Of a stretch of DNA of 64,000 bases, positions 10,430 through 46,677 are shown in pieces. This DNA comes from Thermoplasmatota archaeon (lineage in GTDB: Archaea; Thermoplasmatota; E2; JACPAO01; JAHFTW01). Below the pieces are notes generated by a model. It did no database searches. It was not told the origin of the DNA and was given only the letters and a program-made list of their open reading frames with translations. Every line of letters begins with the position of its first letter. Position 1 is the first letter of the stretch. A program made the position numbers and the translations under genes. The stretch covers positions 64,001 through 128,000 of the forward strand of contig JBFIHX010000004.1 in NCBI GenBank assembly GCA_041601615.1. Reading direction: 5' to 3'.

Positions 10430-10559
10430 GGCGTCGAAGAACCCACGCAGACCCCCCAAGGCCGTGCAAGCACGGCCTCGGGGTCCGCTCGGCCCAAGGG
10501 CCTCGCTGTCTTGCGCTGAACCTTTGGCGCTATTCAGCGCCAAAGAACCCGCGCAAGAC
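10430..10559 (-). mobile_element. Structured gene-end element at the secY stop with a displaced, recoded copy of the secY 3' end
   Basis: 10430-10450 encodes LRGFFDA versus LRGFFGA at 10536-10556; fold-back arm 10508-10531; core GGTCCGCTCG..CTCGCTG and CCGTGCAAGCACGG shared with 46416-46677; mobility is inferred. Confidence 0.65.
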
Positions 10560-12092
10560 GGGATGCATTTCCATCGCCTGTTCCTTCGCAATCTGCTCGT
10601 ACATGCGGATATAGATACCCACAGCCAAGAGCAAACCTGTCCCTGAAGCATTACCGATGGTTCCCAGCATGTCCGCCGTAGCCGCAAGGCCACCGACGAT
10701 TGCACCACCAAGAACCGTGATGGTCGGAATGTAGCGTCCCAGAATCTTCTGCAAGACACGCGGGTCGCGGCGGAAGCCGGGAATCTGCATGCCACTGCGT
10801 TCGATCTGCTTGGCGACCGCTTCAGGACCCATATTGGTGGTCTCGACCCAGAACTTGGCGAACATGATCGAACCACCAATGAAGAGCGACATGTAGATGA
10901 CGATCTTCAAGATGATCTGCCATGGCGCGTGGCCGCTGGCGAAGGCACCATAGGCGTCCGAGTTGAAAATCGGCAGGAACCAGTCACTGAGCCCATTGAA
11001 GGTACTCAGATACCAAGCGCCGCCGGCCACCGGTTGCAGACTCTGGCTGCCGGTCTGGTAGGTTCCGATCCACCAAGCATGCCCGATGACCGGGATCTTG
11101 CTGAAGAACGGGTGCTGCCAGAGAAGCAAGCTGAAGATGTTCACGTTGGCAATCAGCGCCGCCATCAAGATGACAGGGATGTTGCTGGCGTAGATCAACC
11201 GCAGCGGGTAGCGACCACGGGCGCCGCGCACCTTACCATGGGCAAGAGGCAGTTCCACGCGGGTACTCTCAGCGAACACCACGAACATGAAAATCGCCAT
11301 CGTGGCCAGGAAGGTCAGGATGGGATTGGGGAACGCTTGGTTGCCGATGAACATCTGCTCAAAGCCACCCTCGTTGACCAGACTGCGCAAGCTGCGCTGG
11401 CTGAACACGTAGATGACCATGGGCAGGGAGCCGCTGGGGGGATTGAACGTCGGGTCCAATGCCTGACCAGCCTGCGTCGGTTGCCAGTTGAGCGTTCCCT
11501 GGAACAGGGCTTGGCTCACACCGGCCGCGATGAACAAACTGATGCCGGAGCCGATGCCCCACTTGCTGATCAGTTCGTCCATCAGGAACACGACAATGGC
11601 ACCGAAGGCCAGTTGCAGCACAATCACGCTGCGGGCCATGCCGCCGCCGACCGCGTTGACAAACAAGTCGTCCGGTTCCAAGAAACCGTACACTTGCGGC
11701 ACGGATTCAATGAAGATGAACAAGAGAACCAGCACTTTCTGGGCACCTTGGTAGATCGCCTTGTCCTCGGTCTTCGAAAGATCGAGGTTGATGATCTTGG
11801 CGCCCGTGAAGAGCTGCATCACGATGCTGCCGGTGACGATGGGACCAATCCCAAGGTGCATGATCGTGCCGCTGGCACCGGCCAGGATGGCACGGAAGCC
11901 CTCGAAAATGTCGAGCTGTTGGGAGCTAACTCCGAACAGAGTGATGTTGGCCAGAGCAAAGTACAGCAGCAGCGAGCCGGTCGTCCAGAGGAGCTTCGTC
12001 TTGAAAGAGACGTGGCCCTCGGGCTTCCTGACCGCAGGCCAGCGTTCAATGATCGGTTTCAGTGCATAAAGGCGGCTTCGAGTCTCAGCCAT
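10530..12092 (-). CDS. secY: Preprotein translocase subunit SecY (archaeal type)
   Basis: MHLGIGPIVTGSIVMQL, KWGIGSGISLFI, LIYASNIPVIL, QIPGFRRD; follows rpl15. Confidence 0.97.
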   Translation of the reverse strand: MAETRSRLYALKPIIERWPAVRKPEGHVSFKTKLLWTTGSLLLYFALANITLFGVSSQQLDIFEGFRAILAGASGTIMHLGIGPIVTGSIVMQLFTGAKIINLDLSKTEDKAIYQGAQKVLVLLFIFIESVPQVYGFLEPDDLFVNAVGGGMARSVIVLQLAFGAIVVFLMDELISKWGIGSGISLFIAAGVSQALFQGTLNWQPTQAGQALDPTFNPPSGSLPMVIYVFSQRSLRSLVNEGGFEQMFIGNQAFPNPILTFLATMAIFMFVVFAESTRVELPLAHGKVRGARGRYPLRLIYASNIPVILMAALIANVNIFSLLLWQHPFFSKIPVIGHAWWIGTYQTGSQSLQPVAGGAWYLSTFNGLSDWFLPIFNSDAYGAFASGHAPWQIILKIVIYMSLFIGGSIMFAKFWVETTNMGPEAVAKQIERSGMQIPGFRRDPRVLQKILGRYIPTITVLGGAIVGGLAATADMLGTIGNASGTGLLLAVGIYIRMYEQIAKEQAMEMHPVLRGFFGAE

Positions 12093-12385
12093 ACGGTCAC
12101 CGGAGTGGAGCGAGCCGTCCAAAGGGGGCTCTGTCTTAAGTGCTCCCAAGGGGAGAACGGAGAACCTTGTCACACATCCCTAGTGAAGGGCAAAAAAGCG
12201 GGCAAAAACGGGGTGAAGCGCCACTCTACTAGATTTCGAGGCGAACAAACGAACATTCGGCGAAAGTGGAGATTTGCTTGAAGGGAAGCAAATGGTGCCC
12301 ACATGGCGGGCCAAGAGAAGAAAAGGAGGGGGAAATGGAGGGGAAATGGAGGGGGAAGGAAGAGGGCTGTGGCTTGTGGGCCGTC

Positions 12386-12802
12386 CTAGTCGGTCTTGAT
12401 GCTGCCGCCGGCTGCCTCGATCTTCGAGACTGCGCCGTCGGTGGCGTTGGCGACCGTCAGGGTCAGCTTGCCCGTGACCTTGCCGCTGCCAAGGAGCTTG
12501 GTGTAACCGGCCTCGGTGAGGTCGATCTCCGTGGCTCCCGGGAAGAGCTGTTCGAGGGCGCCCACGTTGATGGTGACATCTTCGGGGGTGCGGCTCTTGC
12601 TCTTGAAGCCGATGCGGCCCCAGCGCTTGGCTGCAAGACCGGCGTGCTTGCCGCCGAGGATCTGCAGTTGCAGGAATCGGTGCTTGTTGGCACCGGCGCG
12701 ACCGCGTCCACCCTTGAGACCTGCACCGCGTCCACCCTTGTGGCCGCGACCGTGCGTTCGGCTCTGGCGGCGGAACTTCTTGGCCTTTTCTCCCTTAGCC
12801 AT
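12386..12802 (-). CDS. rpl15: 50S ribosomal protein uL15
   Basis: RTHGRGHKGGRGAG..GGRGRAG; KLLGSG; KIEAAGG. Confidence 0.95.
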   Translation of the reverse strand: MAKGEKAKKFRRQSRTHGRGHKGGRGAGLKGGRGRAGANKHRFLQLQILGGKHAGLAAKRWGRIGFKSKSRTPEDVTINVGALEQLFPGATEIDLTEAGYTKLLGSGKVTGKLTLTVANATDGAVSKIEAAGGSIKTD

Positions 12803-13267
12803 TTAGTTCATCCTCCCGATGAGGTCGTTGATTTTGGCACCACGGTAGCCGAGGGCACCGCCGGCTTGGTAGGAGCGCTTGATGCCTTCGAGACCCTTCT
12901 TGGCAGGGTGCAGGCGCAGCAGGGGCTTGACGTCGGCGAGGTCCTTGTATTGGGCCTTGCCGTCGACGATGGCCTGTGCGAACTCCGCGATGGAGCTGTA
13001 GGCGCTGCCCGCTTTGACCACGGCGTCGGTGATTGGCTTGTCACCCACGAGACGGCCGCGAACGGTGATCATCTCGGTGAGGGTGGCGGCGTCGATCTCG
13101 CCCCAGGTGACGTAGTCCTTGGCGACTTGGAGCATACCCTTGGTGGTCTCGTTGTCAGGTAGGACAACACAGTGGTTGACCTGGTTGAGGCGGAGGTACT
13201 TCAGGGTGTCCTTGATCTTGGGGTTGATGTTGATTTGACCGCGCAGGCGGATGATTGCGTGCGCCAT
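12803..13267 (-). CDS. rpl30: 50S ribosomal protein uL30 (archaeal)
   Basis: IIRLRG..TLKYLRL..KDYVTWGE..RLHP..GALGYRG. Confidence 0.95.
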   Translation of the reverse strand: MAHAIIRLRGQININPKIKDTLKYLRLNQVNHCVVLPDNETTKGMLQVAKDYVTWGEIDAATLTEMITVRGRLVGDKPITDAVVKAGSAYSSIAEFAQAIVDGKAQYKDLADVKPLLRLHPAKKGLEGIKRSYQAGGALGYRGAKINDLIGRMN

Positions 13268-14172
13268 CAGGCATCGACCTCTTCTTGGACATCGGGTTGG
13301 CGGTCGGCCTTGATGGTCAAGGCGCCGTCTACCATCTGGGTGCGGGCGCGCTGGGCGGCCGTCATCTTGACGGTGTTCAGGCTTTCGAGGGCCTGGAACG
13401 CCGCCTTGGCGTAGTTGGTGGTGGTGCGGGTCTGTCCACGAGTGTGCACGTAGGCGTCCTTGACGCCGGCGAGACCGAGCACACTGCGAGCGACCTTTCC
13501 GCCCACAAGGCCGGTGCCCTGAGGGGCGGGGCGAATGGTGACTTCCGTGGAAGCGCATTTGCCCATGGTCTGGTAGGGGATGCTGGTGGCGGGGGCGCCG
13601 TCACCGGATTGCCAGGAGCCTGCACCTCGGCGCACTTCGATCATGTTGATCTTGGCGCGGTCGATGGCGCGGCGGATGGTGGGTCCGACTTCCTTGCCCT
13701 TGGCTTGGCCAAGGCCGACGAAGCCGTCCTTGTTTCCAGCGACACAGGTGATGGCGAAGCGCACACGGCGACCGGAGTCGGTCATGCGCTGGACCATGTT
13801 GATGTTCAGCACTTCGTCCTCGAGTTCGGGCAGAAGGGCGTCGACGATTTCGGGCTCGCGCAGGGGCAAGCCGCTCTGAATCGCTTCGCTCATGGTCTTG
13901 ATTTCGCCACTCTTGACGAGGCGACCTAGGCGGGTCTTGGGATCCCAGGGCGGCGGGGCGGGCTTGTCGAAGCGACGGCGTTGGCCGGGGCCACCGCGTG
14001 CTCCACCTGCTCCTCCACGGGGACCACCGGGGCCTCCGCGGGGGCCACCAGGGCCACCACGGGGTCCGCCGGGACCGCCGGGTCGACCGCCGGGGCCACC
14101 AGGACCGCCGGGGCCTCGGGTTCCGCGGCCAGGCGCTGGGGCGGGGCCGCGGTTCGGGGTTGCATCTGCCAT
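13267..14172 (-). CDS. rps5: 30S ribosomal protein uS5 with Gly/Pro/Arg-rich N-terminal extension
   Basis: WDPKTRLGRLVKSG, VQRMTDSGRRVRF, PAPQGTGLV. Confidence 0.96.
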   Translation of the reverse strand: MADATPNRGPAPAPGRGTRGPGGPGGPGGRPGGPGGPRGGPGGPRGGPGGPRGGAGGARGGPGQRRRFDKPAPPPWDPKTRLGRLVKSGEIKTMSEAIQSGLPLREPEIVDALLPELEDEVLNINMVQRMTDSGRRVRFAITCVAGNKDGFVGLGQAKGKEVGPTIRRAIDRAKINMIEVRRGAGSWQSGDGAPATSIPYQTMGKCASTEVTIRPAPQGTGLVGGKVARSVLGLAGVKDAYVHTRGQTRTTTNYAKAAFQALESLNTVKMTAAQRARTQMVDGALTIKADRQPDVQEEVDA

Positions 14173-14173
14173 G

Positions 14174-14698
14174 TTAGTTCTCCTCGTCGTCTGACTTAGC
14201 CGCCTGCGTGACACCGATGGCGTCGCGGACGGCTTCGAAGCTCTTCTGTTGGTCGAGGAAGGCGCCGTTGAGGCGGTCTTCCGCGGGGAACATCTCGTCG
14301 CCGTGGGGGACGTAGACGCCGGAGTCCACGATGCCCTTGAGCGCCGCGAACACCTTGCTGCCCTTGACTGCCGCGTGGCGGCCGATGTCCAGGACGGCAC
14401 TGTCGATGCCGCTGTCCATGGCGCGCTTGCCAGCCAGGAGGCCGGTTAGGTAGGCGGCCGGGGTGCTCTTGGCACTGCCCGTCCAGCCCATCTTGGCCAG
14501 CTCTTGGCCGACGGCGGTGGTCTTGACGTTGTCGCCGGTCTCGGCCCAGTCGATGAACTGGACGATGACGTTGCCGTTGGTGCGGCGCACCACGACTCGC
14601 GTCTCGCCGCTCTTCAGGAGACCGAGGCGGGCTTTGTAATCAGTGCGGCCTTCGCGCCGACGGCGGAAGGGGACGCGCGTGCGGGGACTGGTCGCCAT
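14174..14698 (-). CDS. rpl18: 50S ribosomal protein uL18
   Basis: RRRREGRTDY..R; AAYLTGLL; KVFAALKG. Confidence 0.96.
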   Translation of the reverse strand: MATSPRTRVPFRRRREGRTDYKARLGLLKSGETRVVVRRTNGNVIVQFIDWAETGDNVKTTAVGQELAKMGWTGSAKSTPAAYLTGLLAGKRAMDSGIDSAVLDIGRHAAVKGSKVFAALKGIVDSGVYVPHGDEMFPAEDRLNGAFLDQQKSFEAVRDAIGVTQAAKSDDEEN

Positions 14699-15159
14699 TA
14701 GGCCACCTCCTCGACAAGCTTGCCTTCGGTCTTCATGTGGGTCACCATGTGGGCGCGGGAGCGGAATTGACCGCCCTTGGCGCGCATGTAGTACTCGCGG
14801 TAGGTGTGGCGGTCGATGGCGCCACTTTCTCGGTAGCCGCGGATTTCGCTGCGCAGAGCACGGATGAGAGCCATCCAGCGCTGCTTGCGTGGCAGACGAG
14901 CGTACTTGGCACCCTTGCGGCTGCCGGGTCCGACTCGTCGTCCCTTGGCTTTCTGGGCGTCTAGTTTGCGGCCGCGGCCACGGGAGACACCCTGTTTCTG
15001 AACGGATACGATGACCTTGCCGTTGATGAGCTTGCGAACATCAGCGCGGGTCACGGCGCCGGCCACTTCTTCTTGGCGGTCGGGGTCGATGCGAACACGC
15101 GACTGGCCGACCTTCATGATGTCGGCGGCGAGGCGCTTCTGGTTGCGAAGATCCGCCAT
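14698..15159 (-). CDS. rpl19e: 50S ribosomal protein eL19
   Basis: QKRLAA; GPGSRKG..AR; WM..IRALR. Confidence 0.96.
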   Translation of the reverse strand: MADLRNQKRLAADIMKVGQSRVRIDPDRQEEVAGAVTRADVRKLINGKVIVSVQKQGVSRGRGRKLDAQKAKGRRVGPGSRKGAKYARLPRKQRWMALIRALRSEIRGYRESGAIDRHTYREYYMRAKGGQFRSRAHMVTHMKTEGKLVEEVA

Positions 15160-15660
15160 CTAGTTTCCTCCACGGTTGAAGACGCGGATCTTGAGTTCGT
15201 CTGCGCGCTTGCAGATGAGCTCGGCCTTGCGTCCACCGACGGTGCCGCCGATGCGGGCGCCTTGGGTGGTGGGCTCGACCTTTTCGAGGTCAGCGGGGTT
15301 GTACACGAGGACTTCTTCGAAGCCGCTCGGGTGCAGGCCGCGCGCGGCGACGGGGCCACGGTAGCCGATGCTGACCAGCGGTGGGCGGTACTTGTAGTGA
15401 CGGCGCTGCTTGGAGTGGATACCGGTCGGTCGGCGCCAGGGGGCGTGCTTGCCTCCGAGCTTCTTGTACCGGAACCATTCTTGGCGGCGGAAGGCAGGAC
15501 GTTGTTTGTCCTTGACCGCGCGGACCTCGAGGGCCGTCTTGGTCGCGTCGTCCAGAACCGGCTTGATTTTCGGCTGGACGTCCTTCTTGTCACCCTTGGA
15601 ACCGGCTTCGCCGGCGGCCTTTACGGCCTTGGTCTCCTGGGGCTTGGTTTCGTCGCTCAT
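15160..15660 (-). CDS. rpl32e: 50S ribosomal protein eL32
   Basis: FRRQ..WRRPTGIHSKQRR; RGLHPSGF. Confidence 0.96.
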   Translation of the reverse strand: MSDETKPQETKAVKAAGEAGSKGDKKDVQPKIKPVLDDATKTALEVRAVKDKQRPAFRRQEWFRYKKLGGKHAPWRRPTGIHSKQRRHYKYRPPLVSIGYRGPVAARGLHPSGFEEVLVYNPADLEKVEPTTQGARIGGTVGGRKAELICKRADELKIRVFNRGGN

Positions 15661-16214
15661 TCTTCACCTCCCTTGTTGGTGATGTAGATGCCATCCTGGA
15701 AGACGCGGATGTCGCGGCCCTTCACGCGGGTGGCAAGTTCGATGTTGGCCGCGGTCTGACCGACGGCGTGGATGTCGATGCCTTCTACGGTGACATCGGC
15801 GCCCTTGACAGTCACCTTGGCACCGGGAACAATCGTGGCTCGGCGAGCGTGGCGCTCCCCGAGGAAGTTCTCGATGACCACTTCGGTGCTCTGCACGTTG
15901 ACCTTGATGGGAAAGTGGTTGTAGACGATCTTGAGCTGGTAGTTCCAGCCGTCGGTCACACCGCGGATCATGTTGCGGATGTGTGCGGCGTAGGTGCCGC
16001 AGATCGCCTTGTGTTCGCGTCGGGGCAGGTCCTTGTGGACCCGCACCACGTCGCCGTCGACATTGACGGTGACGCCGCGGTAGCGGAAGCGACGCTCCAG
16101 TTCGCCCTTGGGGCCCTTGACGAAGGTGTGGTTTTCGCCGTCGGCATGGTCGACCGTGATGGTGACGCCGGACGGGATGTCCACTTCATGGATGATTTCA
16201 GAGAGAATCGGCAT
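15657..16214 (-). CDS. rpl6: 50S ribosomal protein uL6
   Basis: VKGPKGEL; HFP; NFLGE; DIRVFQDGIY. Confidence 0.96.
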   Translation of the reverse strand: MPILSEIIHEVDIPSGVTITVDHADGENHTFVKGPKGELERRFRYRGVTVNVDGDVVRVHKDLPRREHKAICGTYAAHIRNMIRGVTDGWNYQLKIVYNHFPIKVNVQSTEVVIENFLGERHARRATIVPGAKVTVKGADVTVEGIDIHAVGQTAANIELATRVKGRDIRVFQDGIYITNKGGEE

Positions 16215-16222
16215 AATATCAC

Positions 16223-16612
16223 CTAGTAGACGTAGGCGAGCAAACGCCCGCCTGTTCCGACCTCCTTGGCCTTGTATTGGTCGATGACGCCGTAGGTGGT
16301 CGTCAGAATCAGGGAGCCGAAGTCACGGGCCGGAAGGTACCGGGACTCCCACTCGTCGAATTCTGCCTTCTTGATGGCGTAGCGGGGCTTGATGACACCA
16401 CAGTTGTTGATCTGGCCGTTGAGGCTGATCTTGTACAGGCCGCCGCGTCCATCGTCTTCGTATTCGAAGGGGCCGATGTAGCCTTGGTCCTGCATTACCT
16501 TCAGAACGCGTCCAACGAGCTTCGAAGCGGGGGTGATGGTGGCCTCCGTTTTCTTGGCGCGCTCGGCGTTGCGGAGGACTGTCAATGCGTCTGCGAGAGG
16601 ATCGGTTTGCAT
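16223..16612 (-). CDS. rps8: 30S ribosomal protein uS8
   Basis: DPLADAL; GVIKPRY; GGRLLAYVY. Confidence 0.96.
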
Positions 16613-16621
16613 TTTGTCACC

Positions 16622-16783
16622 TCAAAAGTACTTCTTGAACCCGAGCGTGCGGGCGTTGTCGCGGAAGCATTGTCGACATAGGCGCAGGGCATAGCGGCGC
16701 ACCATTCCACGGCGACGTCCGCAGGCCTGGCATCCTTCGATGCGACCCTTCCAGATCTGGCGTTCTTTCATGACGAGGGGCAT
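16622..16783 (-). CDS. rps14: 30S ribosomal protein uS14 (zinc-ribbon type; absent from ORF track)
   Basis: Hand translation [53 protein letters not shown]; expected position between rpl5 and rps8. Confidence 0.95.
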
Positions 16784-17308
16784 CTAGATGACCTCCAGGT
16801 TGAATTTCTCGGTAAGGAACGCCATGCATTCCTCACGGGTGACACGGTGGCTCCGGGGAACCTTGCGTGCCATGAGCCGGCGGCGCTTGATGCGGTGGCC
16901 GGGCTTTTCTAGGGTGATGGCGACATCCATGCCAAAGACACCGATGTCGGGGTCGTAGCGTTCGCCCTCGAAGGTGGTGTGGTCGGTGACACCGAATTGC
17001 AGGTTGCCTTGGTTGTCGAAGCTCCAGGCGTAGATCTTGTTCAAGCGCGTGTAGAGTGCGCGTCGAATGAAGTCTTCAGCCGCTTCGCCGCGGACGGTGA
17101 CCTTGCAGCCGATGGGCATGCCGGGGCGGACACCGAGTTCGCGGTTGTTGACCTTACCAAAGGTGCGCATCGGCTTTTGGCCGGTGAGCTTCTCGGCAAC
17201 GCGTTCTGCCTTCTCGAGGCGGTCGCCGCCCTCTCCGACACCGAAGTTGACGGTGACCTTGTGGACGCGGGGCAGGGTCATGGGGTTGACCGTGGCTGCA
17301 TCAGACAA
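16784..17308 (-). CDS. rpl5: 50S ribosomal protein uL5
   Basis: NPM..KVTVNFGVGE; PIGCKVT; YDPDIGVFGMD. Confidence 0.96.
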   Translation of the reverse strand: MSDAATVNPMTLPRVHKVTVNFGVGEGGDRLEKAERVAEKLTGQKPMRTFGKVNNRELGVRPGMPIGCKVTVRGEAAEDFIRRALYTRLNKIYAWSFDNQGNLQFGVTDHTTFEGERYDPDIGVFGMDVAITLEKPGHRIKRRRLMARKVPRSHRVTREECMAFLTEKFNLEVI

Positions 17309-18397: not shown

Positions 18398-18406
18398 CAG
18401 AATACC

Positions 18407-20128: not shown

Positions 20129-20242
20129 TTTGGTGCTCGGATTCACGGCTCTTTCTTCCCGCTTCTTCAACCCCACCGGCCACAGGTTGCTCTTCCCGCC
20201 CCCTCCGGCCCCCCGCGCCCTCCTTCGACTACCGTGCCGGCG

Positions 20243-20351
20243 CTACCGTACTTTTTTGGTGCGCCCATCGTCGCCCCCTCTGGGGCCACCGAAGGTCCAC
20301 TCGCCTGCGGCTCGCCGCAAAATGAAAGCCCTACCGGACCTTCTTTGTGCG
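20243..20351 (-). mobile_element. Structured gene-end element at the rnp1 stop with a synonymously recoded duplicate RTKKVR*
   Basis: 20243-20263 and 20331-20351 both encode RTKKVR* with 4 third-position differences; core CGTC-hairpin-ACCGAAGGTCC(A/G)CTC-hairpin-TCGC shared with 46563-46614; mobility is inferred. Confidence 0.7.
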
Positions 20352-28281: not shown

Positions 28282-28364
28282 GCCAGTTTCGCATAGCTAG
28301 GTAGTGCGGCGGATTCGAAATCCGCTGGTCTCTGACCACGCAGGTTCAAATCCTGCAGCTGGCG
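28282..28364 (+). tRNA. tRNA-Ser (CGA)
   Basis: Acceptor stem GCCAGTT/AGCTGGC, anticodon arm GCGGA-TTCGAAA-TCCGC, long variable arm TGGTC-TCT-GACCA, T arm GCAGG-TTCAAAT-CCTGC, G discriminator, no encoded CCA. Confidence 0.95.
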
Positions 28365-32416: not shown

Positions 32417-33859
32417 ATGGTCGTCCGGGCCCGTGGCCTCCCGTCCTTGCTGCTCCTGCTGCTTTTGCTTGCCCCCTTGGCGAGCGCGGGCTCTGTGGAT
32501 GATCCAGAACTGACCGATCCTTCCGGTGACGCCGATGATGGCATTCCGAACACCGACTACACGGGCATTGACATCATCAAGGTCTGGGTTTCCTCCGAGA
32601 ACGCCACGCATGTATTCGTGATGGTGCAGACCGTCGGCAACATCCAGGAAGGGAATCAGCAACAGTTCAGTTTCCAGCTTTTCTTGACGCACAATTCGAC
32701 CGAGCAGAGGATTCCCGTGGAGCTTGCGGGCTCCACGCCGAGTGTTGGTTCCATCGCGGGCAACATTCTCGAAGTGCCGTTCTCCAAGGCGGACTTTGCG
32801 GGCATCCGTCCTGGTGATGTTCTCGATTCTTTGTCTGTGATCTCCACCGGAACCACCGGGGCCTCGTCCATCAGCAGCGCTGGCGACCGTGCCCCTGACG
32901 AGGACGCCGCTCCGGCTCGCAACTACACCGTTGGTTCGCAAGCGATTGCGGGCGTGGATTATGATGGCGATGGCCTCGATGACCGCGACGAGCTTCGCAA
33001 CGGGACGAATCCTGCCAAAGCGGACACCGACGGCGACGGGCTCAGCGATTCGGACGAGTTGAACCGGGGCACAGACCCGAACAACGCGGACACGGACGGC
33101 GATGGCCTTTCGGACGGCGCGGAGGTTGCTCTTGGCACCGATCCACTGCTGGCAGACTCCGACAACGATGGCCTTAGCGATGGCGACGAGGTCAACGTCC
33201 ACGGCACGGATCCCCTTAAGGCCGACACGGACGAAGATGGGATCTCAGACGCGGATGAATTGACCTTCCAAACGGATCCGACGAAAGCGGACACGGACGG
33301 CGACGGCATCGACGACAAGACGGAGCTGGAAAACGACCGTTTGAATCCCCGCGATGCAAGCGATGGCCTTGCGGACCCGGACGGCGACGGTGTGAGCACG
33401 GCCGATGAGTTGGCGGCGGGCACGGATCCGTTCACGAGCGACTTGGACGACGGCAAGCTCACAGATGCGGGCCCCGGTGGCATCGCCTTGTGGATCTGGA
33501 TCGCCCTCGCGGTGATTGTGCTGCTTCTGCTGGTGCTGCTGTTCGTGCTCTTGGCGCGTCGTCGCCGTGAGCCGAAGGAAGATGCGGTACCCGAGGACAT
33601 CGTCGAGGTGGAGGAGTACTCCGAGTTGGACGATGATGATGCGCCGTTTGTTTTGAGCGAGGACTACCTTCGCGAGGGACTTTCGGACGAAGAAGTGGAT
33701 GCTGCCCGCGCTCGTTTCATGGACCGTGAGAAGCGGTTCTGGGACAACAGCAACCCCGACCGAAGCCGCGAGCACGACGACGAGGACCTTCCGGCTCCTT
33801 GGGGCGACCACGCGGAAGGCAGTGCGCCTCGCCGGCTCTGGAAGAAGCGCGACGAGTAG
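32417..33859 (+). CDS. Membrane-anchored surface protein with thrombospondin type-3-like Ca-binding repeats
   Basis: Signal peptide; about seven D(T/S)DGDG(L/I)SD..E...GTDP repeats; TM helix followed by RRRR and an acidic tail. Confidence 0.85.
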   Translation: MVVRARGLPSLLLLLLLLAPLASAGSVDDPELTDPSGDADDGIPNTDYTGIDIIKVWVSSENATHVFVMVQTVGNIQEGNQQQFSFQLFLTHNSTEQRIPVELAGSTPSVGSIAGNILEVPFSKADFAGIRPGDVLDSLSVISTGTTGASSISSAGDRAPDEDAAPARNYTVGSQAIAGVDYDGDGLDDRDELRNGTNPAKADTDGDGLSDSDELNRGTDPNNADTDGDGLSDGAEVALGTDPLLADSDNDGLSDGDEVNVHGTDPLKADTDEDGISDADELTFQTDPTKADTDGDGIDDKTELENDRLNPRDASDGLADPDGDGVSTADELAAGTDPFTSDLDDGKLTDAGPGGIALWIWIALAVIVLLLLVLLFVLLARRRREPKEDAVPEDIVEVEEYSELDDDDAPFVLSEDYLREGLSDEEVDAARARFMDREKRFWDNSNPDRSREHDDEDLPAPWGDHAEGSAPRRLWKKRDE

Positions 33860-40048: not shown

Positions 40049-40060
40049 GGGTTTTCCTTT

Positions 40061-40083
40061 TGGTTGGTTGGTTGGTTGGTTGG
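40061..40083. repeat. (TGGT)5+ tetranucleotide tract
   Basis: TGGTTGGTTGGTTGGTTGGTTGG read directly; just upstream of the start at 40048. Confidence 0.85.
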
Positions 40084-40109
40084 GTGTGGTGGTGTGTGAG
40101 TGGGATGCG

Positions 40110-41330
40110 TTATTCGGAGGCAGGCGGGTCTGGGTAGGGTGCTGTTGCCCAGGGTGAGAGGGTAACGGGGCCTCGTATTCGGTTGGTTTCGGGCGGGTCG
40201 TGGCCCCACCAGTTGTTGGGCACATGGAGCGTGGTTTCGCCGGTGTTGTCGAGTAGGATGCCGGAGCCGACGATGTTGTTGTCTTGAAGGAGGATGCCGG
40301 GGTGCGTGGTGAGGTTGAGGAGGGTGCCGTGGCCGGAGATGGAGGAATGGGTGAGTTGGACGGGGCCCCGGGCGCGGAGGGCGGTTTGAACGTCGGTGAT
40401 GTGGAGGCGGTCTAGGGTGGCGTTTCCTTCATTGAGAAACAGGGCGAGGTTGCCTCCTTGGAAGGTGGAGTTTTGCAACGTGAGGTTGCTTGCGAATGCG
40501 GTGATGCCGTGCCCACTTGCCTGGAACATGGTGGCTTGGATGGTGGCATCGCTGTCGCGCAGGTAGATGCCGCATTCTTGCAGAAAGGTTCCTTCCTGCA
40601 ATGCGAGGGTGCTGGATTCGAGGCGCAAGCCGTAGTCGAGGGTGGAGCGTGACTGGATGGAGCGCAATTGAAGCGTGGATCGTTCGGCGTGGATGCCGTA
40701 TCCGGTGATGTTGTCCCAGGTGCCTTGTTGGATGTGGATGTGACTGTCGAAGAGTCGTACCGCATTTCCTTGGGCGTTTTGGAATTGGATGTTTTCTGCG
40801 AAGATCGTGCCCCTCGTGGCGCGAATCAGTTCCCCGGGGCTGTCTTGGAGCGTGGTGTCAAAGAGGGCGAGGGAGCCATGGATTTGCAGGGCACCGGCGG
40901 AGAGGTGGATGGTGCTGTTGCGGATTTCTAGGGTGCCGTCGACAATGAAGCGGACATGGCGAAGGTTAGCGTGGTCCAGCACTAGGTGGACGCCTGGTGG
41001 GACATGCACCACGGCGGCGCGATCGTCGCCTGCGGCTGGTGCGAAGTCAAGGTGGTTCCATGTGGTGGATGCGGGAAGGGTGAACGATGCTCCTTGTTCA
41101 AGCATCGATGCCGCGGGGGCTGGCGCGCTGCAACCGGACAGCATACTGAGTGTGATGGCAAGGGCTAGAATCGTGGCGCAGGTGGCGGCGCGGGGCGTGG
41201 CGCGGGGGCCGGTGCGCAGAGTGGCGCCGGAAGTGGTGCTGTGGGTGATTGCGTTGCGCGCATGGCGGCACGTTGGGGATGAGCTCCTTCTTGTGCAATT
41301 GTTGGAACGCATCCTGGGACACTTCGTCAA
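40110..41330 (-). CDS. Lipoprotein with right-handed parallel beta-helix repeats; true start probably downstream of 41330
   Basis: MLSGC lipobox; repeated GI.L..S...I.N..F patterns; NNWWG. Confidence 0.65.
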   Translation of the reverse strand: MTKCPRMRSNNCTRRSSSPTCRHARNAITHSTTSGATLRTGPRATPRAATCATILALAITLSMLSGCSAPAPAASMLEQGASFTLPASTTWNHLDFAPAAGDDRAAVVHVPPGVHLVLDHANLRHVRFIVDGTLEIRNSTIHLSAGALQIHGSLALFDTTLQDSPGELIRATRGTIFAENIQFQNAQGNAVRLFDSHIHIQQGTWDNITGYGIHAERSTLQLRSIQSRSTLDYGLRLESSTLALQEGTFLQECGIYLRDSDATIQATMFQASGHGITAFASNLTLQNSTFQGGNLALFLNEGNATLDRLHITDVQTALRARGPVQLTHSSISGHGTLLNLTTHPGILLQDNNIVGSGILLDNTGETTLHVPNNWWGHDPPETNRIRGPVTLSPWATAPYPDPPASE

Positions 41331-41552
41331 TTTGACTATCAGTGTATTCGTTGTTTTGTTCCCCCTTGATTTCGTGGATCGAGCCGGGAAACGGCCACCA
41401 AGGATGGGGAAATGCCAGGGGAGTCAGGGGTATTGCATCGGCGCTTGCTCGCGGAGCGCCGACTCCATGGATATGCAAAGGGAACGAAGGAAAAAGTGGG
41501 GAAAAGCACGGATAATGCAAGGGCCCTAGGGGCCCAAGATCAAGACCTCGAA

Positions 41553-43505
41553 TTAGCCCTGCAGGCTCTGCACGCAAGCCTTGACGTCACTGGTGCTGAT
41601 TTGCGTGACGGCCATGGCGGCGAGTTTGCGGCAGTCGGTGGTGTCCGGTACGCAGTTCTTGATGTCTGTCGTGGTCGGGGGCACTGCACTGAAGCAGGAC
41701 GTCACGTCGCAGGGGTCCGGGGAGAACGAGTCGCACGGATCAACCGGGCACAGAAGCTGAATGTTCAGCTCGCAGGGGTCCGGGTCGCAGCTCAGTCCGA
41801 GGTACTGCAAGAGTACGCAGGGGTCGACGGGGCAGTTGGCGGGTTTCTCGCAGGGGACCGTGCAGTCGAAGTCGATGAGGTTTTGGACAACGGGGCACGG
41901 GTCGGGGTCGCAAGGGTCGCCACCGGGCACACCGGGTCCGCCAGGCACAATGGGTCCAGCTGCGATGCGGGGAACCGGCAGGGAATCGGCGAGGCCCCGG
42001 GGTAGCTGCACGCCGTCCGTGGGGCAGCATTCAGCAGGAGGGGTGGGTCCACCGGGCAGGCCGGGGACGGCGACTCCGCCGGGGAGTCCGGCGCTTGGCG
42101 AGAGCAGGACGATGTCCTTGATGCCGCCTGGCGGGCTGACGGTGGACGAGCACACAGGCGGGCAGATGTCCACTTCGACGTCATTGGCGTGGTCCTGGCT
42201 GGGTTCCACTTCTTGGCCAATCAGGCACTTGGGGACAGCCGGGTCGTCGGTCGGGGGGTCGGAGTCGTCGATGCTGCCTTCGCCGCACAGAGCGCTGGCG
42301 TGGGCGTGGCTGACGATGATTTCGACAGTTTCGCCAAGAGGCAGGTCCAGGAAGACGTGCAGAGCGTTGCGGTAGACTTGGGAACTGCCGCTGGTGCTGG
42401 AGCCGACCACTTCGTCAAAGAGGACGTAGCCGAGAGTGCTCTGGGTGTTGAGAGGCGATCCGCTGACGGCAAGTTGGTTGTTGCGGATTTGCACACCAAG
42501 GGTTTCACCATCGGTGGTGTAGCCTGCGGCGCCGTTCATGGCGTAGGCGTCCACTTCGCTGCGAAGTACATCGACGCGCAGGAGGGCGGCGCCATTGTAG
42601 TTGATGCCGAAATCGACGATTTGGGCGCTGGCAGCGGAGTCCACGCGGTGCGTGCCGACGTCCACGGTGGCTTCGGCGTGGAGCACCTTGCCGAAGATGT
42701 CGACGTTGTTGACGGCGTAGTTGAAGGCCTGGACGTCGAGGTGTTCGTCGTTGGGTGCGTCGACGAAGTTGAGTTTGTCTACGCGGACGGCGGCGCCGCC
42801 GGGGTAGTTGGGCTCATTGACTTCGACGAAGAGGTCGTAGGCGTCTGCCATGCCCTTTGCCTTGCCCTTGAAGCTGTTGCGAATGTCATCGAACACATCT
42901 TGCAAGTCGCTGGCGGTGGTGGGGTTGTAGTAGTGGCTGGGGCTGGTCGCGGCGCCTTCTAGTTCGGCTTGGTTGACGTTGGGGCCAAAGCCGATGCTGA
43001 AGATGATGATGCCGTCGTTCTTTGCGGCGGTGGCGGCGGCGTGGGTGGCGGCCGTGTTGCCGGATACGCCATCGCTCAGAAGCACCATGAACCAGCCAAC
43101 GTTGGAGCGTCCATTGTTGGTGAATTCTTGGTGGCCGGTCTGGATGCCGATGGCGATGTTGGTGCCGCCGCCGGCGCTCATGGCGTTGACTGCGTACTCG
43201 GTGCTGGCCGTGTTGGTTGCACCCGTGTGGACGTTGTCAAGGCCCTTGTCGAGAGATGCGCTGCTGCTGTAGCTCACGAGGCCACTGTGGTCGCTGCCAA
43301 TGAGTTGGCCAAGCAGGAAGTTAGCGCCGGATTTGGAATCGGCGAGGGGTTGTCCGTACATGGAGCCAGAGCGGTCCATGACCAGCATGATGTCGGCGTT
43401 GCCGATGGTCTCGCATTCGGGATAAACCGGGTGGTCTGCTGCTGCATTGGGCAGGACGATCAATCCTGAAATTAGCAGCATGAACATCACAGAAATGGTG
43501 CGCAT
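41553..43505 (-). CDS. Secreted vWA-domain protein with Cys/Pro-rich C-terminal tail
   Basis: MIDAS motif DRSGSM, GGTN, LLSDG; repeated (D/N)PC motifs at the C-terminus. Confidence 0.85.
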   Translation of the reverse strand: MRTISVMFMLLISGLIVLPNAAADHPVYPECETIGNADIMLVMDRSGSMYGQPLADSKSGANFLLGQLIGSDHSGLVSYSSSASLDKGLDNVHTGATNTASTEYAVNAMSAGGGTNIAIGIQTGHQEFTNNGRSNVGWFMVLLSDGVSGNTAATHAAATAAKNDGIIIFSIGFGPNVNQAELEGAATSPSHYYNPTTASDLQDVFDDIRNSFKGKAKGMADAYDLFVEVNEPNYPGGAAVRVDKLNFVDAPNDEHLDVQAFNYAVNNVDIFGKVLHAEATVDVGTHRVDSAASAQIVDFGINYNGAALLRVDVLRSEVDAYAMNGAAGYTTDGETLGVQIRNNQLAVSGSPLNTQSTLGYVLFDEVVGSSTSGSSQVYRNALHVFLDLPLGETVEIIVSHAHASALCGEGSIDDSDPPTDDPAVPKCLIGQEVEPSQDHANDVEVDICPPVCSSTVSPPGGIKDIVLLSPSAGLPGGVAVPGLPGGPTPPAECCPTDGVQLPRGLADSLPVPRIAAGPIVPGGPGVPGGDPCDPDPCPVVQNLIDFDCTVPCEKPANCPVDPCVLLQYLGLSCDPDPCELNIQLLCPVDPCDSFSPDPCDVTSCFSAVPPTTTDIKNCVPDTTDCRKLAAMAVTQISTSDVKACVQSLQG

Positions 43506-43649
43506 AGCGCCGCAGATGGGTTTCGGCTGTTAGCTGTGGGCGTCACATTGTTACCCGGTTTTGGGCCGATATGAACCAACGCCTGCTCTCCGAACCGGGT
43601 GGGCGAGGCGCCCGGCAGGCTTCTACCTCGGGCGCGGCGTGCCCGTCGC

Positions 43650-45344
43650 ATGCGCGTTCTTGGTGCCGTTGCCTTGACGATCCTCGTGTCCTTTGCAGGC
43701 TGCCTTTCGAGCAATTCCACGACTCCCGATTCGGGCGCGGGGATGCAGATTCCGGTAACGGAGGGCGATGCGCAGCAACCGTTTGCGACGTTCCTTTGCA
43801 AGGACGGCTATGTGGCGGCCGGGGGGCTTACTGCTGCCAACTTGGATCGCTGCAACCACCGCGTCACCAAGCCCCTGTTGGATGCGTCCCGCTTGGATGT
43901 CGTCGGCCAGCATGGGCCCGCCAATGAGGTCAGCATTGCCATGAATCCGACAAACATCCTCAATGCGGCGGGCGGCGCGAAGGATTACACGGTCAGCTAC
44001 GTCAGCGACGACGCGGGGTGTGGCGAATTCACCGTCTGGATGGGCACCTATGCTACCTTCGATGGCGGCCTCACTTGGTCCAATGATTTGATGCCTGGAT
44101 TCCCCGGCGACGACCGACCCAGCCCGCTTTCTGGCAATGGCTGCAACACGGACCCGGTTTTGGTGTTCGACGACGACGGTACCTTGTACTACAGCGGCCT
44201 GAATTACCGGGGCGCTCGCGATGACTTATCCACCATCGATTTTCCGGGCACCGAGCACGACGCAGTCACCGGCAGCCAAGTGTACTTTGCCCGCAGCCAG
44301 GACGGCGGTGCCAGCTACGACCGGATTACGTTCACAAGCTTTGGCGACAACGACAACGTGTTCAACGACAAGCAATGGTTTGCGGCCCAGGCTGGCGGCG
44401 ACCACATGATTCTGACGTGGAGCGATTTCATCGGCCCCGGCCCCGTGATTCTGTACTCCGAGAGCCTTGATGCGGGCGCAACTTGGACCCCGCCTCGACC
44501 CATTCCGGGCGCCAACGCGCTCACGGTTTTGGCAGTTCAAGATTCCATGCCGCAGTACTTCACGGGCCCGGCCGGTGAGCAGCGCGTGGCAGCCACTTGG
44601 GTGAGCACGGGGGTTAAAGCAAGCCCCCACAGCGAAGGCCCCGAGTCGGTCATTGCCTACGCGGAGGGCATCGTCACTCCCGCCGGCGTCCAGTGGATTC
44701 CCGCCACAGCCGCATTTTCCTACAACCCGGTCCAATCTGGGCCCGGCCGCGACGGCAGTGGCCCAAGCACCTTCCGCTGGGGCACCATCCCCGTGCTTGC
44801 CGTAGACACCATTGGCGGCGCGTGCGATGGCCGACGCTATGTGGTCTGGGAGGACCAACCTGGGCCCCTGGACTCCGACGTGAACGTACTGCTTCGCTAC
44901 AGCGACGACGGCGTTGCCTGGTCCATGCCCCTGCGCGTCAGCTACACCGGCACCGGCGACCAATTGATGCCGTGGATTGAAACCGACGAGGAAGGCGGCG
45001 TGCACGTTGCCTACTACGACCGCCGCAACGATCCTGACAACCGCCTCCTCGACGTCTACTACGCATACTCCGAGGACTGCGCCGAGACATTCTTGCCAGA
45101 CATTCGAGTCACGGAAGCAAGCTTCGACGGCGACCTGGGCCACCACCAAAACGGCTCGCCCTTCATTGGCGACTACATTGGCATGGACGCCACGAGCGAA
45201 GCGGCGATGATCATCTGGGCCGACACGCGCCACACGGGAAGCCCCGGCCGCGAGGCAGGAAGCGACGTCTACACCGCGACGATTCTGCGGGACCTGGATG
45301 TTCGAGCCCAGTTCGACGCCGTGTTCAGCGAACCTCGGCCGTGA
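43650..45344 (+). CDS. BNR/Asp-box beta-propeller (sialidase-like) lipoprotein
   Basis: FAGCL lipobox; TFDGGLTW, SQDGGASY, SLDAGATW and SDDGVAW Asp-boxes; FIGDY. Confidence 0.85.
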   Translation: MRVLGAVALTILVSFAGCLSSNSTTPDSGAGMQIPVTEGDAQQPFATFLCKDGYVAAGGLTAANLDRCNHRVTKPLLDASRLDVVGQHGPANEVSIAMNPTNILNAAGGAKDYTVSYVSDDAGCGEFTVWMGTYATFDGGLTWSNDLMPGFPGDDRPSPLSGNGCNTDPVLVFDDDGTLYYSGLNYRGARDDLSTIDFPGTEHDAVTGSQVYFARSQDGGASYDRITFTSFGDNDNVFNDKQWFAAQAGGDHMILTWSDFIGPGPVILYSESLDAGATWTPPRPIPGANALTVLAVQDSMPQYFTGPAGEQRVAATWVSTGVKASPHSEGPESVIAYAEGIVTPAGVQWIPATAAFSYNPVQSGPGRDGSGPSTFRWGTIPVLAVDTIGGACDGRRYVVWEDQPGPLDSDVNVLLRYSDDGVAWSMPLRVSYTGTGDQLMPWIETDEEGGVHVAYYDRRNDPDNRLLDVYYAYSEDCAETFLPDIRVTEASFDGDLGHHQNGSPFIGDYIGMDATSEAAMIIWADTRHTGSPGREAGSDVYTATILRDLDVRAQFDAVFSEPRP

Positions 45345-46311
45345 TGTAGACCCAGCGCGCCGGAAATGAAGCACCGTCAAAAACGCGGTCGGCTGCCATG
45401 CGCAGCACCCGCAACCGATCCGAGACCGCCTCCGGGCTTGGTTCTGTGCCCTCGACCTTGGGGCTGCCACCCATCCAGCCAACGATGCCGTCGTGGTAGA
45501 CACCAAGGAACTCCATCCACTCACCCACATCCACGTCGAACACTTGTTCCCGCGTGGAGATGATCTCGAAGCCGGCAGCAACCAGCGCACTCGTGTAGGT
45601 CTTGAGCGGCCGCACCGGCAGGAAGTAGCGTTTGCGCAGCGCGTCGTGGCTCTCCATGCAAACGGCATCAGACAGCGCCGGTCGGTATGCTGCGAACGAG
45701 TCGTCCTCGGCCACAATTTTTGCCGCTTCGGCCGCAAGCGCGTGCACGGTTTCGTCGATGATCCATTCGCCCGTGTCCGGGTGCTCTGGGGCTATGTTGC
45801 CCGATTGAATCACGGCACGGCCGCCGGGTCGCAGCACGCGGCGCCAGGCACGCAACGTATCGGCAAGGTCGTAGTAGAGGTGGATGGCGTTGGCGCTGAC
45901 GATGGCAGCAACACCTCGAAGCAAGTGCATTCCAACGACTTCGTCCAAGGACTCCAAGCGACGCACCTCGGGTTGGTAGCGAATGAGTCGGAACGCCGTG
46001 CGCGGGTCGTTGCCGTGTTTTTCCAGGTCCAAGCGGAGGAATTTGGCCGAAGCATCCACGTTCAAGATTCCGATGCTGCGGTCGCCCGCGCGCGCCAGGA
46101 GCCTATCGCCGAGCAGGCCGGTGCCGCCGGAGTAGTCCACCACGATGTGGCCGTCGCCAAGAAATTCCAGCACTTCGTCCACCGTAGGGTTGAGGTTGTC
46201 GTACCAACCGTGGCCTCCCAACAAGTCATACCCCCGCGCCAAGTCCGACAACGGCTGCCGAGTCCAGGGGTCATCCTCGATGCGCTCAAAGCCCGCTGGC
46301 CAGACGTTCAT
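45325..46311 (-). CDS. Class I SAM-dependent methyltransferase
   Basis: VVDYSGGTG; ANAIHLY; RVLRPGG. Confidence 0.85.
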   Translation of the reverse strand: MNVWPAGFERIEDDPWTRQPLSDLARGYDLLGGHGWYDNLNPTVDEVLEFLGDGHIVVDYSGGTGLLGDRLLARAGDRSIGILNVDASAKFLRLDLEKHGNDPRTAFRLIRYQPEVRRLESLDEVVGMHLLRGVAAIVSANAIHLYYDLADTLRAWRRVLRPGGRAVIQSGNIAPEHPDTGEWIIDETVHALAAEAAKIVAEDDSFAAYRPALSDAVCMESHDALRKRYFLPVRPLKTYTSALVAAGFEIISTREQVFDVDVGEWMEFLGVYHDGIVGWMGGSPKVEGTEPSPEAVSDRLRVLRMAADRVFDGASFPARWVYITAEVR

Positions 46312-46415
46312 AGCGAACCGAAGACGCAGTACCAAATTAGGCCGTTCGATGGTTGCACAGACATCGCCATGGGTGCGAGGCAGGACATCGCGCCTGATTT
46401 GGCGCCGAAATGCTA

Positions 46416-46677
46416 GGCTACGCCCTCGGCAAACCTAGGGTTTTGGCAATCACCACCGTCCCGTGCAAGCACGGGCCGAAGGATTCCTCGGGCTTCGCCC
46501 TAGGCATCGCGAAAACGACTCCCCCTCGCTACGCTCGGGGCAACCCTAGCGTTTTCGCGATCCCCTTCGTCGCCGGACAAGCCGGCACCGAAGGTCCGCT
46601 CGCTGCGCTCGCTGATTACCAAAACCCGTTTCCCTCGGGCTACGCCCTCGGCAAACCTAGGGTTTTGGCAATCACCA
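46416..46677 (-). mobile_element. Tandem pair of 111-bp structured gene-end elements with three copies of the acyl-CoA dehydrogenase 3' end
   Basis: Stop codons at 46640, 46529 and 46418 (111 bp period); 46416-46455 identical to 46638-46677; 46529-46561 encodes the same [10 protein letters not shown] with 7 synonymous changes; mobility is inferred. Confidence 0.8.

Follow-up and report, generated by a model that had tools for sequence, protein, structure and literature searches.

ORF-less structured cassettes at duplicated gene ends form a family-restricted class in uncultured Thermoplasmatota archaea

Why should three unrelated genes of a Thermoplasmatota archaeon each run into a short structured unit that is followed by a further copy of the same gene end? 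This question is raised by the 64-kb stretch of DNA analyzed here (the window). An initial annotation had proposed that secY, rnp1 and the acyl-CoA dehydrogenase gene (acd) share this architecture, with two units at acd. All four units were recovered on the minus strand, in gene sense, with the second copy of the gene end directly 3′ of each. They were scored with a covariance model (CM R1) built solely from units at other loci, in a search space of 64 kb.

At secY, whose ORF terminates in ...HPVLRGFFGAE*, the first hairpin (P1) lies at 10508..10559 (fold MFE −76.6 kcal/mol, z = −7.5); its 5′ strand consists of the last 10 codons and the stop TAG (10530-10532), and its 3′ strand is the arm (10508-10529). 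The conserved core at 10452..10507 comprises P2 (5 bp stem), a GGA linker, P3 (13 bp and a CUUG loop) and a terminal GG. It matched CM R1 with 73.9 bits (E = 3.7e-12) and is 97% identical to the L039 core, while the gene itself is 87% identical. The displaced end, copy 2 at 10421..10451, contains a 1-nt deletion and non-synonymous changes and is thus decaying. At rnp1, which encodes RNase P p29 (PF01868), P1 (20317..20351) holds the last 6 codons, the stop TAG (20331-20333) and a short arm. The core spans 20264..20316, of which 20274-20316 was matched by CM R1 (22.2 bits, E = 0.018) and the 3′ strand of P3 was read by eye. Its copy 2 (RTKKVR*, 20243..20263) differs at four positions, all synonymous.

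At acd, P1 of unit A (46613..46674) is formed by copy 1 (46640-46672, stop TAG 46640-46642) and its arm, followed by the core at 46562..46612 (CM R1 match over 46562-46613, 35.9 bits, E = 4.9e-5), with a single difference from the G002 core. P1 of unit B (46506..46561) combines copy 2 (46529-46561) with its own matching arm, and the core at 46451..46505 is a variant with GAGGAAUCC (CM R1, 25.5 bits, E = 0.0043). Copy 3 is placed at 46414..46450, omitting 5 nt that fall inside the core match of unit B. Copies 1 and 2 differ at 7 nt, as do copies 2 and 3, in each case only synonymously, and copies 1 and 3 are identical across 40 nt (46416-46455 = 46638-46677). The stability of the folds exceeded that of shuffled sequences by far for secY and acd unit A (z = −6.4), and by less for rnp1 (sense z = −2.6) and acd unit B (sense z = −2.2). 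The copy spacings first proposed were borne out at rnp1 (88 nt) and acd (111 and 111 nt), and the value at secY is 106-107 nt because of the deletion in copy 2. The difference counts of 7, 7, 4 and 5 had to be replaced by 4 nt for rnp1 and 7 nt for each acd pair, with copy 2 of secY decaying.

The cassettes are about 85-150 nt long, roughly 100 bases, and carry no ORF of their own, in line with the suggestion of a non-autonomous element. They fold into three hairpins. In P1, the last 7-20 codons and the stop (6 codons at rnp1) pair with a locus-specific arm. P2 has the form GC-GA-stem-GNA loop-stem-GA-GC with a GNA triloop, its GA...GA elements forming an internal loop of tandem G.A with GC/GC as the closing pairs, and P3 is a 13-bp stem whose tetraloop is often CUUG. 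The TTCGG that had been placed ahead of a hairpin does not form a loop but belongs to P3, as whose 5′ strand it closes on CGAAGG past the inner hairpin. When 94 model matches (73 distinct) were aligned, 95.8% of the P2-P3 cells were paired versus 66.8% in shuffles (0/500), and both sides had changed in 18 of the 19 pairs. Sliding the 3′ partners along the alignment reduced the pairing to 30-51%. Model alignment and pairing test support a single repeat family, in which the covarying core is common to the units and the parts that match the target are particular to each locus. The sense strand folded better than the antisense strand in 75/78 units for the core and in 59/78 for the P1 region. The cassette structure is specific to, and selected on, the sense strand. 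This specificity, together with RNA-type motifs (about 52 G.U cells in the stems, the tandem G.A and the CUUG loops), suits a 3′ UTR RNA at least as well as a folded single-stranded DNA.

To see how far the family extends, the covariance model was run on the host genome (G000, 93% complete) and its relatives. It found 13 units in the host and 120 matches in 27 of the 38 genomes of the order, at 1-15 matches per genome. The matches are confined to one family of Thermoplasmatota (25/31 genomes, compared with 0/89 in other families of the class). The cassettes are a family-restricted class in one family of uncultured Thermoplasmatota archaea. In agreement with the remark that no described family was recognized, literature searches found no description of such a cassette, and in an Rfam 15 search of the whole window no family reached its gathering score apart from a tRNA at 28282-28364. 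RtT RNA, the tyrT 3′ repeat of E. coli (RF00391), is built of repeats, every one of which closes with a further tRNA-Tyr 3′ end. It was the sole near-match in an E-value search of 46380-46740, and homology to it is not supported, the score of 19.3 bits lying far under the gathering value of 45 (E = 0.23).

The targets are conserved genes and recur; Pfam and translation identified them as SecY, EF-2, S7, NusA-KH, Spt5, thermosome, RNase P p29, acyl-CoA dehydrogenase, aldehyde dehydrogenase and a SIS protein. L12, TFB, V-ATPase D, DUF35 and BCCP were read by eye from the C-terminal sequence alone, and tRNA gene ends are targeted as well (L144, L147). About 15 unrelated genes carry the same 55-nt core, which is conserved in both sequence and structure. 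In 47/76 units an ORF of 80 aa or more on the same strand ends within 90 nt upstream, most often 19-43 nt ahead of P2; a convergent ORF was found at 21/76, and pyrimidine-rich tracts lie downstream. The core matches are associated with duplicated gene ends, a second copy scoring at least 24 being present in 39/74 units versus 13/217 control windows.

Empty sites were found in related genomes, the filled and empty pairs compared being at most 95% identical and showing no freshly made insertion junction. The secY site is filled in G000, L039, L040, L048, L049, L056, L058, L059 and L161 and apparently empty in, for example, L041, L045, L047 and L050-L052. Units at acd are restricted to genus g1, with an empty site in G003-G008 and G012-G015. 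Occupancy of orthologous sites is thus patchy among relatives, some of which lack the unit. Where a unit is present, the core of the first unit is 96-98% identical at a gene identity of 87-88%. First-unit cores are better conserved than synonymous sites, and units at orthologous loci are kept across genera, which looks like a host-level function and not pure selfishness. No near-identical cores were seen at different loci of G000, and recent movement from gene to gene is therefore not supported.

The junctions are precise. The second copy of the upstream segment begins 0-2 nt past the P3-GG, and its length equals that of the P1 5′ strand just before the core, as with 15 nt in L155 and 66 nt in L161. 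Each cassette abuts precisely on the 5′ border of the resident stretch to which its P1 corresponds. The protein stays as it was, while the former gene end is pushed downstream and decays there; later cassettes pile up upstream and give arrays. The claim that the element brings its own version of the target and keeps the host protein intact is thereby upheld, the working gene end being in the unit and the displaced one downstream. Among 22 units, the differences between copies affect 77 codons synonymously and 13 non-synonymously in frame, versus 12:103 and 15:97 in the shifted frames. In young units the copies do not differ (L048, L177, TFB and C4:203887 of G000, in whose second copy the ATGA overlap with the start of the following gene is preserved). 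Other copies are intact and recoded, with up to 10 of 12 codons differing only synonymously (e.g., L040, L026 and L183), and still others are decayed (secY of G000, L049 and L192). Recoding is therefore no inherent part of insertion, as the copies of the youngest units show. The idea of recoding as immunity to re-cutting found no support, there being no sign of a cutting enzyme either. Two-unit arrays can follow an A-B-A pattern, with a recoded copy between two outer ones that resemble each other (acd in G000, L040, L056 and L161), and near-identical tandem units also exist (L177, L144).

Our preferred reading, to which we would give about an even chance, is that the cassettes are undescribed ORF-less 3′-UTR elements that replace gene ends, are spread by host recombination and keep their core for a transcript function. 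From its position and strand bias, we infer that the cassette would be co-transcribed with the mRNA and its core retained because it serves the transcript, for example in 3′-end protection, processing or protein binding. Spread would occur mainly between alleles or orthologues of one conserved gene end across lineages, through host recombination for which gene body and duplicated end offer the homology, and without an enzyme of its own. Moves to a new gene would be rare events. Template switching within the hairpin may rebuild arms and stems; it has been described as creating and maintaining RNA hairpins through reverse-complement copies that keep stems paired (10.1101/2021.04.15.439925). Several observations count against this explanation. 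Recombination over segments of 15-66 nt that are only 65-85% identical should be inefficient, homologous recombination leaves the same P2-P3 core at about 15 unrelated genes unexplained, and simple recombination does not predict the A-B-A pattern. Copy number is low, and since mismatches between arm and copy show no synonymous bias (8:61), arm-templated conversion cannot be the source of the recoding.

A rival model, which builds on that of the initial annotation, is a selfish non-autonomous element mobilized in trans by a recombinase or nuclease; P1 of the folded strand would be a target image or guide and P2-P3 a protein platform, and integration would be site-specific at P3-GG/X and retargetable via P1. 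We regard this as rather unlikely, although the precise junctions speak for it. New units land directly after the resident core and 5′ of the copy, even at about 70-80% copy identity, and the A-B-A arrays fit a crossover at the 3′ edge of the core. The strand-specific structure is what a single-stranded substrate would show, a second core type (type B) has the same architecture at secY (L046, L048, L054), and tRNA gene ends are hit as well. However, the lack of an evident enzyme in the window extends to the order, where no candidate mobilizing enzyme was found. Y1_Tnp (Y1 HUH/RAYT, PF01797) was detected in 0/38 genomes including G000, the control search being positive in 6/14 reference genomes; Cas1 (PF01867), the integrase family needed for casposon- or CRISPR-type integration, in 0/38; and reverse transcriptase (RVT_1, PF00078), needed by group II introns, retrons and DGRs, with no hit in G000 and in 1/38 genomes of the order. 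The tyrosine recombinases of G000 are ordinary ones only. The 80 viral loci carried 0 units and the viral pattern scan was empty. The low copy number without bursts of near-identical copies and the cross-genus conservation noted above also argue against this model, and the arrays almost always involve the same gene, whereas a core-directed recombinase would make mixed arrays too.

In a bolder reading, P1 would be a programmable address: a single-stranded DNA or RNA cassette would find a match to its 15-66-nt hairpin strand and, helped by trans factors of the host or of other origin that recognize P2-P3, be written in precisely at the 5′ edge of the match, duplicating the target. The cassette would home from one species to another at those ends of core genes whose protein sequence is conserved, leaving essential genes intact through the replacement end. 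We consider this improbable.

Could the hairpins instead have been made in place, as vertically inherited 3′-UTR or terminator structures immobile between genomes, the arm arising by template switch and the copy by slippage or tandem duplication? Template switching places a reverse-complement copy beside its source and changes both stem strands together (10.1101/2021.04.15.439925). P1 and P2 stems are indeed exchanged wholesale among congeners with P3 unchanged, and the near-identical tandem units, the low copy number and the lack of an enzyme fit such an origin. Yet template switching is a mutational process and not an element, and it leaves the shared core at unrelated genes and the recoded displaced copies unexplained. 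Since intact displaced copies are recoded only synonymously, in-place divergence of an untranslated copy cannot be the source. Perfectly complementary arms were never seen, even beside identical copies (L048, C4:203887), and presence at orthologous sites is patchy. An in-place origin therefore seems quite doubtful to us.

It is highly improbable that the cassettes are scars of larger integrative elements (viruses, plasmids or casposons), with the gene-end duplicates as attL/attR and the core as an internal-deletion remnant. Archaeal integrated elements hit tRNA genes and the 3′-distal parts of protein genes including EF-2, can bring a new stop codon, keep the gene intact with its end duplicated downstream, and may occupy one site repeatedly, in tandem (PMC6563490). 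They share EF-2 and tRNA ends as targets with the cassettes. Those elements, however, measure kilobases, encode an integrase or casposase and have either a TSD of about 14-15 bp or att sites that are fixed, whereas the cassettes have no integrase inside and a duplication that follows their own hairpin. Against scars stands the structure itself, which is conserved, covaries, is strand-specific and keeps a fixed geometry at some 120 places, and the P1 arm pairs with the gene end, unlike att scars. No unit was seen to flank a larger insert, the 60 kb downstream of the NusA unit containing no second copy above chance, and Cas1 is absent, as stated.

How do the cassettes compare with short structured repeats? 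REP, BIME and REPIN sequences are short, structured, ORF-less repeats just 3′ of bacterial genes, thought to act on the transcript and mobilized, if at all, in trans by RAYT. The cassettes are likewise short, structured, ORF-less and 3′ of ORFs in gene sense. In contrast to REP/REPIN, the cassette hosts lack the required RAYT gene, the first, locus-specific hairpin holds the coding end and stop, and each cassette brings a working gene end and displaces the old one. PATE derived from IS200/IS605 need TnpA (Y1), use a 4-5-nt target and make no target duplication, and classical MITEs have their own terminal inverted repeats and a short TSD of fixed length; no Y1_Tnp was found in the genomes of the order, and the cassettes lack such repeats, their arm pairing with the upstream gene end and their duplication of 15-66 nt varying with P1. 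The CTX attP(+) and integron attC sites, with which the initial annotation drew an analogy, resemble the cassettes in being imperfect one-strand hairpins whose stem resembles the double-stranded target, strand-specific and read by XerCD or IntI at fixed sequences, attC having R″/R′ boxes. The cassette stem differs at every gene, and its RNA-type motifs point at least as much to RNA as to attP/attC-like DNA.

If our preferred reading of a host-spread 3′-UTR cassette holds, a gene-less module of 100 nt can repeatedly settle at the ends of an archaeal lineage's best-conserved genes, including those of SecY, EF-2, ribosomal proteins, TFB, Spt5, NusA and RNase P p29, harmlessly via a replacement end. 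It would combine two behaviours known only separately, a REP-like structured 3′-UTR repeat and, as in large integrative elements, an insert that supplies the gene end itself. The cassettes provide a natural young-to-old insertion series for the co-evolution of hairpin and coding sequence, and may mark information-processing genes in common at the post-transcriptional level. Should P1 function as an address, they would be a lead to a small retargetable insertion mechanism, and, if that address is programmable, to a natural, enzyme-light, retargetable insertion system.

Two further observations concern sequence data. The cassettes break assemblies, since contigs C28 and C5 end in a unit and C4 and C9 in a related repeat, and gene callers and tblastn can be led astray by the gene-end copies in tandem.

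The four units in the window, which lie at open reading frames for SecY (Sec61 type), RNase P p29 (rnp1) and acyl-CoA dehydrogenase (acd; units A and B, with gene-end copies 1 to 3), share a common anatomy when read in gene sense on the minus strand. Each starts with P1, a long imperfect hairpin whose 5′ strand consists of the last codons of the gene and whose 3′ strand is a locus-specific arm, the stop codon lying within or touching the loop. P1 is followed by P2, a short stem capped by a GNA-type triloop, with GA on each side and GC/GC closing, then by a GGA linker and by P3, a 13-bp stem whose tetraloop is frequently CUUG; the "TTCGG" listed as a separate core motif in the initial annotation proved to be the 5′ strand of P3. 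After P3 comes GG, and the second copy of the gene end starts immediately. The copy spacings reported earlier were confirmed at 106–107 nt (secY), 88 nt (rnp1) and 111 + 111 nt (acd). The accompanying claim that adjacent copies differ almost only synonymously held for rnp1 (4 differing positions) and for acd copies 1–2 and 2–3 (7 differences per pair), all of which are synonymous, but not for secY, whose copy 2 carries non-synonymous changes and a 1-nt deletion. Copies 1 and 3 of acd are identical over 40 nt. Translation of copy 2 by read-through or splicing was ruled out by the 106- and 88-nt spacings, which are out of frame, and at acd by an in-frame TAA in the arm.

Further units in the host genome (G000) were located by profile and pattern scans, and a covariance model (A3, R1) was built from eight units, all from loci outside the window. 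The model recovered all four window units, bearing out the shared core proposed for them, and gave 12 sense matches in G000 (13 units counting rnp1) and 120 matches in 27 of the 38 genomes of the order, with 1–15 in each. Across an alignment of 94 matches (73 distinct), pairing held in 95.8% of cells, compared with 66.8% after shuffling, and none of 500 shuffles scored as high; since the matches were aligned by fitting to the model, structure is favoured, but the margin is large nonetheless. Changes on both sides were seen in 18 of 19 pairs, and pairing was 30–51% once the partners were slid. These results showed that the cassettes are one family with a real structure. At E ≤ 1e-4, the core was detected in 25 of the 31 other genomes of the host's own taxonomic family (f1), and in none of 89 genomes from nine other families of the class. 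A loose pattern scan of viruses returned at least 119 stretches, with no model match among the 80 loci listed, and a stricter pattern returned none; in metagenomes, the stricter pattern gave 13 loci with no true unit, the sole model match (18.1 bits, E 0.08) being discounted. The cassettes matched no Rfam family: only one tRNA reached the gathering score across the whole window, and an E-value search over 46380–46740 returned a weak RtT match alone (19.3 bits, E 0.23), which was rejected as an identity and kept as an analogy only. The available part of 10.1101/2024.07.17.603846 gives no mechanism for rtT, and PMC10542128 holds no whole-word match.

The sense strand folds better than the antisense strand in the core of 75 of 78 units and in the P1 region of 59 of 78, and G·U occurs in about 52 stem cells. 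Motifs typical of RNA are present, namely tandem G·A, GNA triloops and CUUG tetraloops. The cores of first units are more conserved than the gene itself: between G000 and a related secY locus (L039), the core and the start of copy 2 are 97% identical and the gene 87%, and between G000 and G002, the core of acd unit A is 96–98% identical and the gene 88%. Wholesale exchange between congeners was observed for P1 (copy and arm) and for the P2 stem, and in the apical half of the hairpin of acd unit B, G000 and G002 share only about 50% identity, with codons and pairing retained. Of 76 units, 47 have an ORF of 80 aa or more on the same strand that ends no more than 90 nt upstream, mostly 19–43 nt before P2, and many of the remaining units are located at tRNA genes or inside arrays. 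Pyrimidine-rich tracts lie downstream, the units being placed between them and the stop codon. Together, these observations support the conclusion that the cassette is maintained in 3′ UTRs as a structure of the sense strand.

The core is present at about 15 different genes, and the target genes recur in different genera. By Pfam or translation, the targets are SecY, EF-2, ribosomal protein S7, a NusA-like KH protein, Spt5, thermosome, RNase P p29, acyl-CoA dehydrogenase, aldehyde dehydrogenase and a SIS protein; read by eye from C-terminal sequence only, they include L12, TFB, V-ATPase D, a second acyl-CoA dehydrogenase, DUF35 and a biotin carrier. At two loci, L144 (G012:C124:8500-9700) and L147 (G017:C380), a putative tRNA gene, read by eye, has repeats on both sides, namely four tandem 150-nt units of the main core type (type A) on one side, each with the tRNA 5′ end copied in antisense, and on the other a different repeat type, in which the tRNA 3′ end is copied in part. 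Other repeats were seen at secY 3′ ends. Type B units (L046, L048, L054), about 0–120 nt past the stop codon, have the layout of type A (gene end, complementary arm, hairpin, second gene-end copy) around an unrelated, C/T-rich core. In three related genomes (L042, L043, L044), the pyrimidine tract is followed by tandem repeats, each about 50 nt long, which contain a hairpin-forming motif and are not related to the core of type A.

The second copy of the upstream segment starts 0–2 nt past the GG after P3, and a second-copy score of at least 24 was obtained for 39 of 74 units, compared with 13 of 217 control windows. The length of this copy tracks the P1 of the unit immediately upstream, being 15 nt at L155 and L030, about 27 nt at L181 and 66 nt at L161. 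Consistent with the insertion proposed at the outset, orthologous sites were empty in relatives, including many secY loci and acd outside the host genus, the only genus in which the acd site is occupied. A purely local origin of the cassettes fits poorly and is improbable. Over 22 units, the codon differences between copies numbered 77 synonymous to 13 non-synonymous in frame, versus 12:103 and 15:97 in the two wrong frames; at the extremes (L026, L040), 8–10 codons are changed and the peptide is kept. In-place divergence of an untranslated copy is ruled out by this pattern, which implies either that both copies were working gene ends before being brought together or, alternatively, that coding constraint governed the changes in the upstream copy and the downstream copy stayed static. 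For the comparison of native and foreign copies, the nearest empty-site relatives of secY are 82–93% identical over the last 180 nt. A displaced copy of the NusA unit was sought in the 60 kb downstream, where the best score (24) was at chance level. Mutagenesis like that of DGRs was excluded by the synonymous differences and by the presence of a reverse transcriptase in only 1 of 38 genomes. It was also excluded that the arm is a fossil of a donor coding copy and the source of recoding by arm-to-copy conversion, because mismatches between the reverse complement of the arm and the copy are synonymous in 8 cases and non-synonymous in 61, and do not favour third positions (42/34/25).

The units could be arranged by age. 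The youngest have identical copies despite an imperfect arm (L048, L177, the TFB locus and G000 C4:203887). L048 has three identical secY ends, with a type-B and a type-A unit in tandem and two different cores, and at the TFB locus the entire P1 is duplicated. The unit at C4:203887-203937, outside the window, separates an acyl-CoA dehydrogenase gene from the gene that follows; the two copies of its 25-nt duplication are identical, and the dehydrogenase stop codon and the overlapping ATG (ATGA) of the next gene are both preserved. Copies in units of intermediate age are recoded yet intact, and those in the oldest units are decayed (G000 secY, L049, L192). At L161, the upstream unit is the younger, as shown by the order in which the copies decayed and by how far each extends. 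Two-unit arrays show an A-B-A pattern, with a recoded middle copy between two outer copies that resemble each other (acd in G000, L040, L056, L161). The secY lineage at L161 (G023:C1:400400-401100) also has a fourth, small hairpin, GCGACGC-CGCA-GCGTCGC, between each core and the next copy. The observations on junctions, copies and arrays support an insertion cassette that stacks into arrays and that displaces the resident gene end, bringing a working one of its own.

No mobilising enzyme was evident, in keeping with the initial annotation: Y1 HUH transposase and Cas1 were each found in 0 of the 38 genomes of the order, and of three tyrosine-recombinase hits in G000 (93% complete), none is close to a unit. 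Integration driven by an enzyme and addressed by P1 would suit the precise junctions and the A-B-A arrays, and we regard it as a serious rival reading, though an unlikely one. To a joint explanation, which we hold the most probable, we give about an even chance: the core would act for the transcript, host recombination would carry cassettes between alleles and orthologues, and template switching would remake the hairpins. The cassette resembles a REP-type 3′ repeat in that it works as one, combined with gene-end replacement, and the latter is common to the cassettes and the archaeal integrated elements described in the accessible part of PMC6563490. That the cassettes are scars of large elements fits poorly and is very improbable. 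By the defining tests of these groups, they are not REP/RAYT elements, IS200/IS605 PATEs, MITEs, casposons or retroelements. No account of such cassettes was found in full-text searches of the literature, and their integration mechanism is possibly new.

Contigs of G000 end inside these repeats (C28 3′ end/C5 3′ end; C4 3′ end/C9 5′ end), which indicates that the units limit assembly. A subfamily of GAGGGAAUCC type also occurs in tandem, spaced at 83 nt. Four DNA runs were used as contigs, and these break at the identical acd copies 1 and 3. No filled or empty variants were visible in them, rare variants being invisible in contigs. In one run (X4), a single 249-nt contig (depth 4) runs from 46637 back into 46416, closing a 222-nt cycle over both acd units; an assembly-graph loop would explain it, as might a longer array or a circle.

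Other repeats in the window include two direct copies of 237 nt, 84% identical and 396 nt apart (9548-9784 and 9944-10180), just downstream of the secY unit. Gly/Pro-rich 9-nt periodic repeats with collagen-like coding were found inside large ORFs at 13972-14117 and 48306-48512. At 33005-33315, likewise inside a large ORF, the repeats are 66 nt long with many GAC/GAT (Asp) codons and, read by eye, appear to be of a calcium-binding type.
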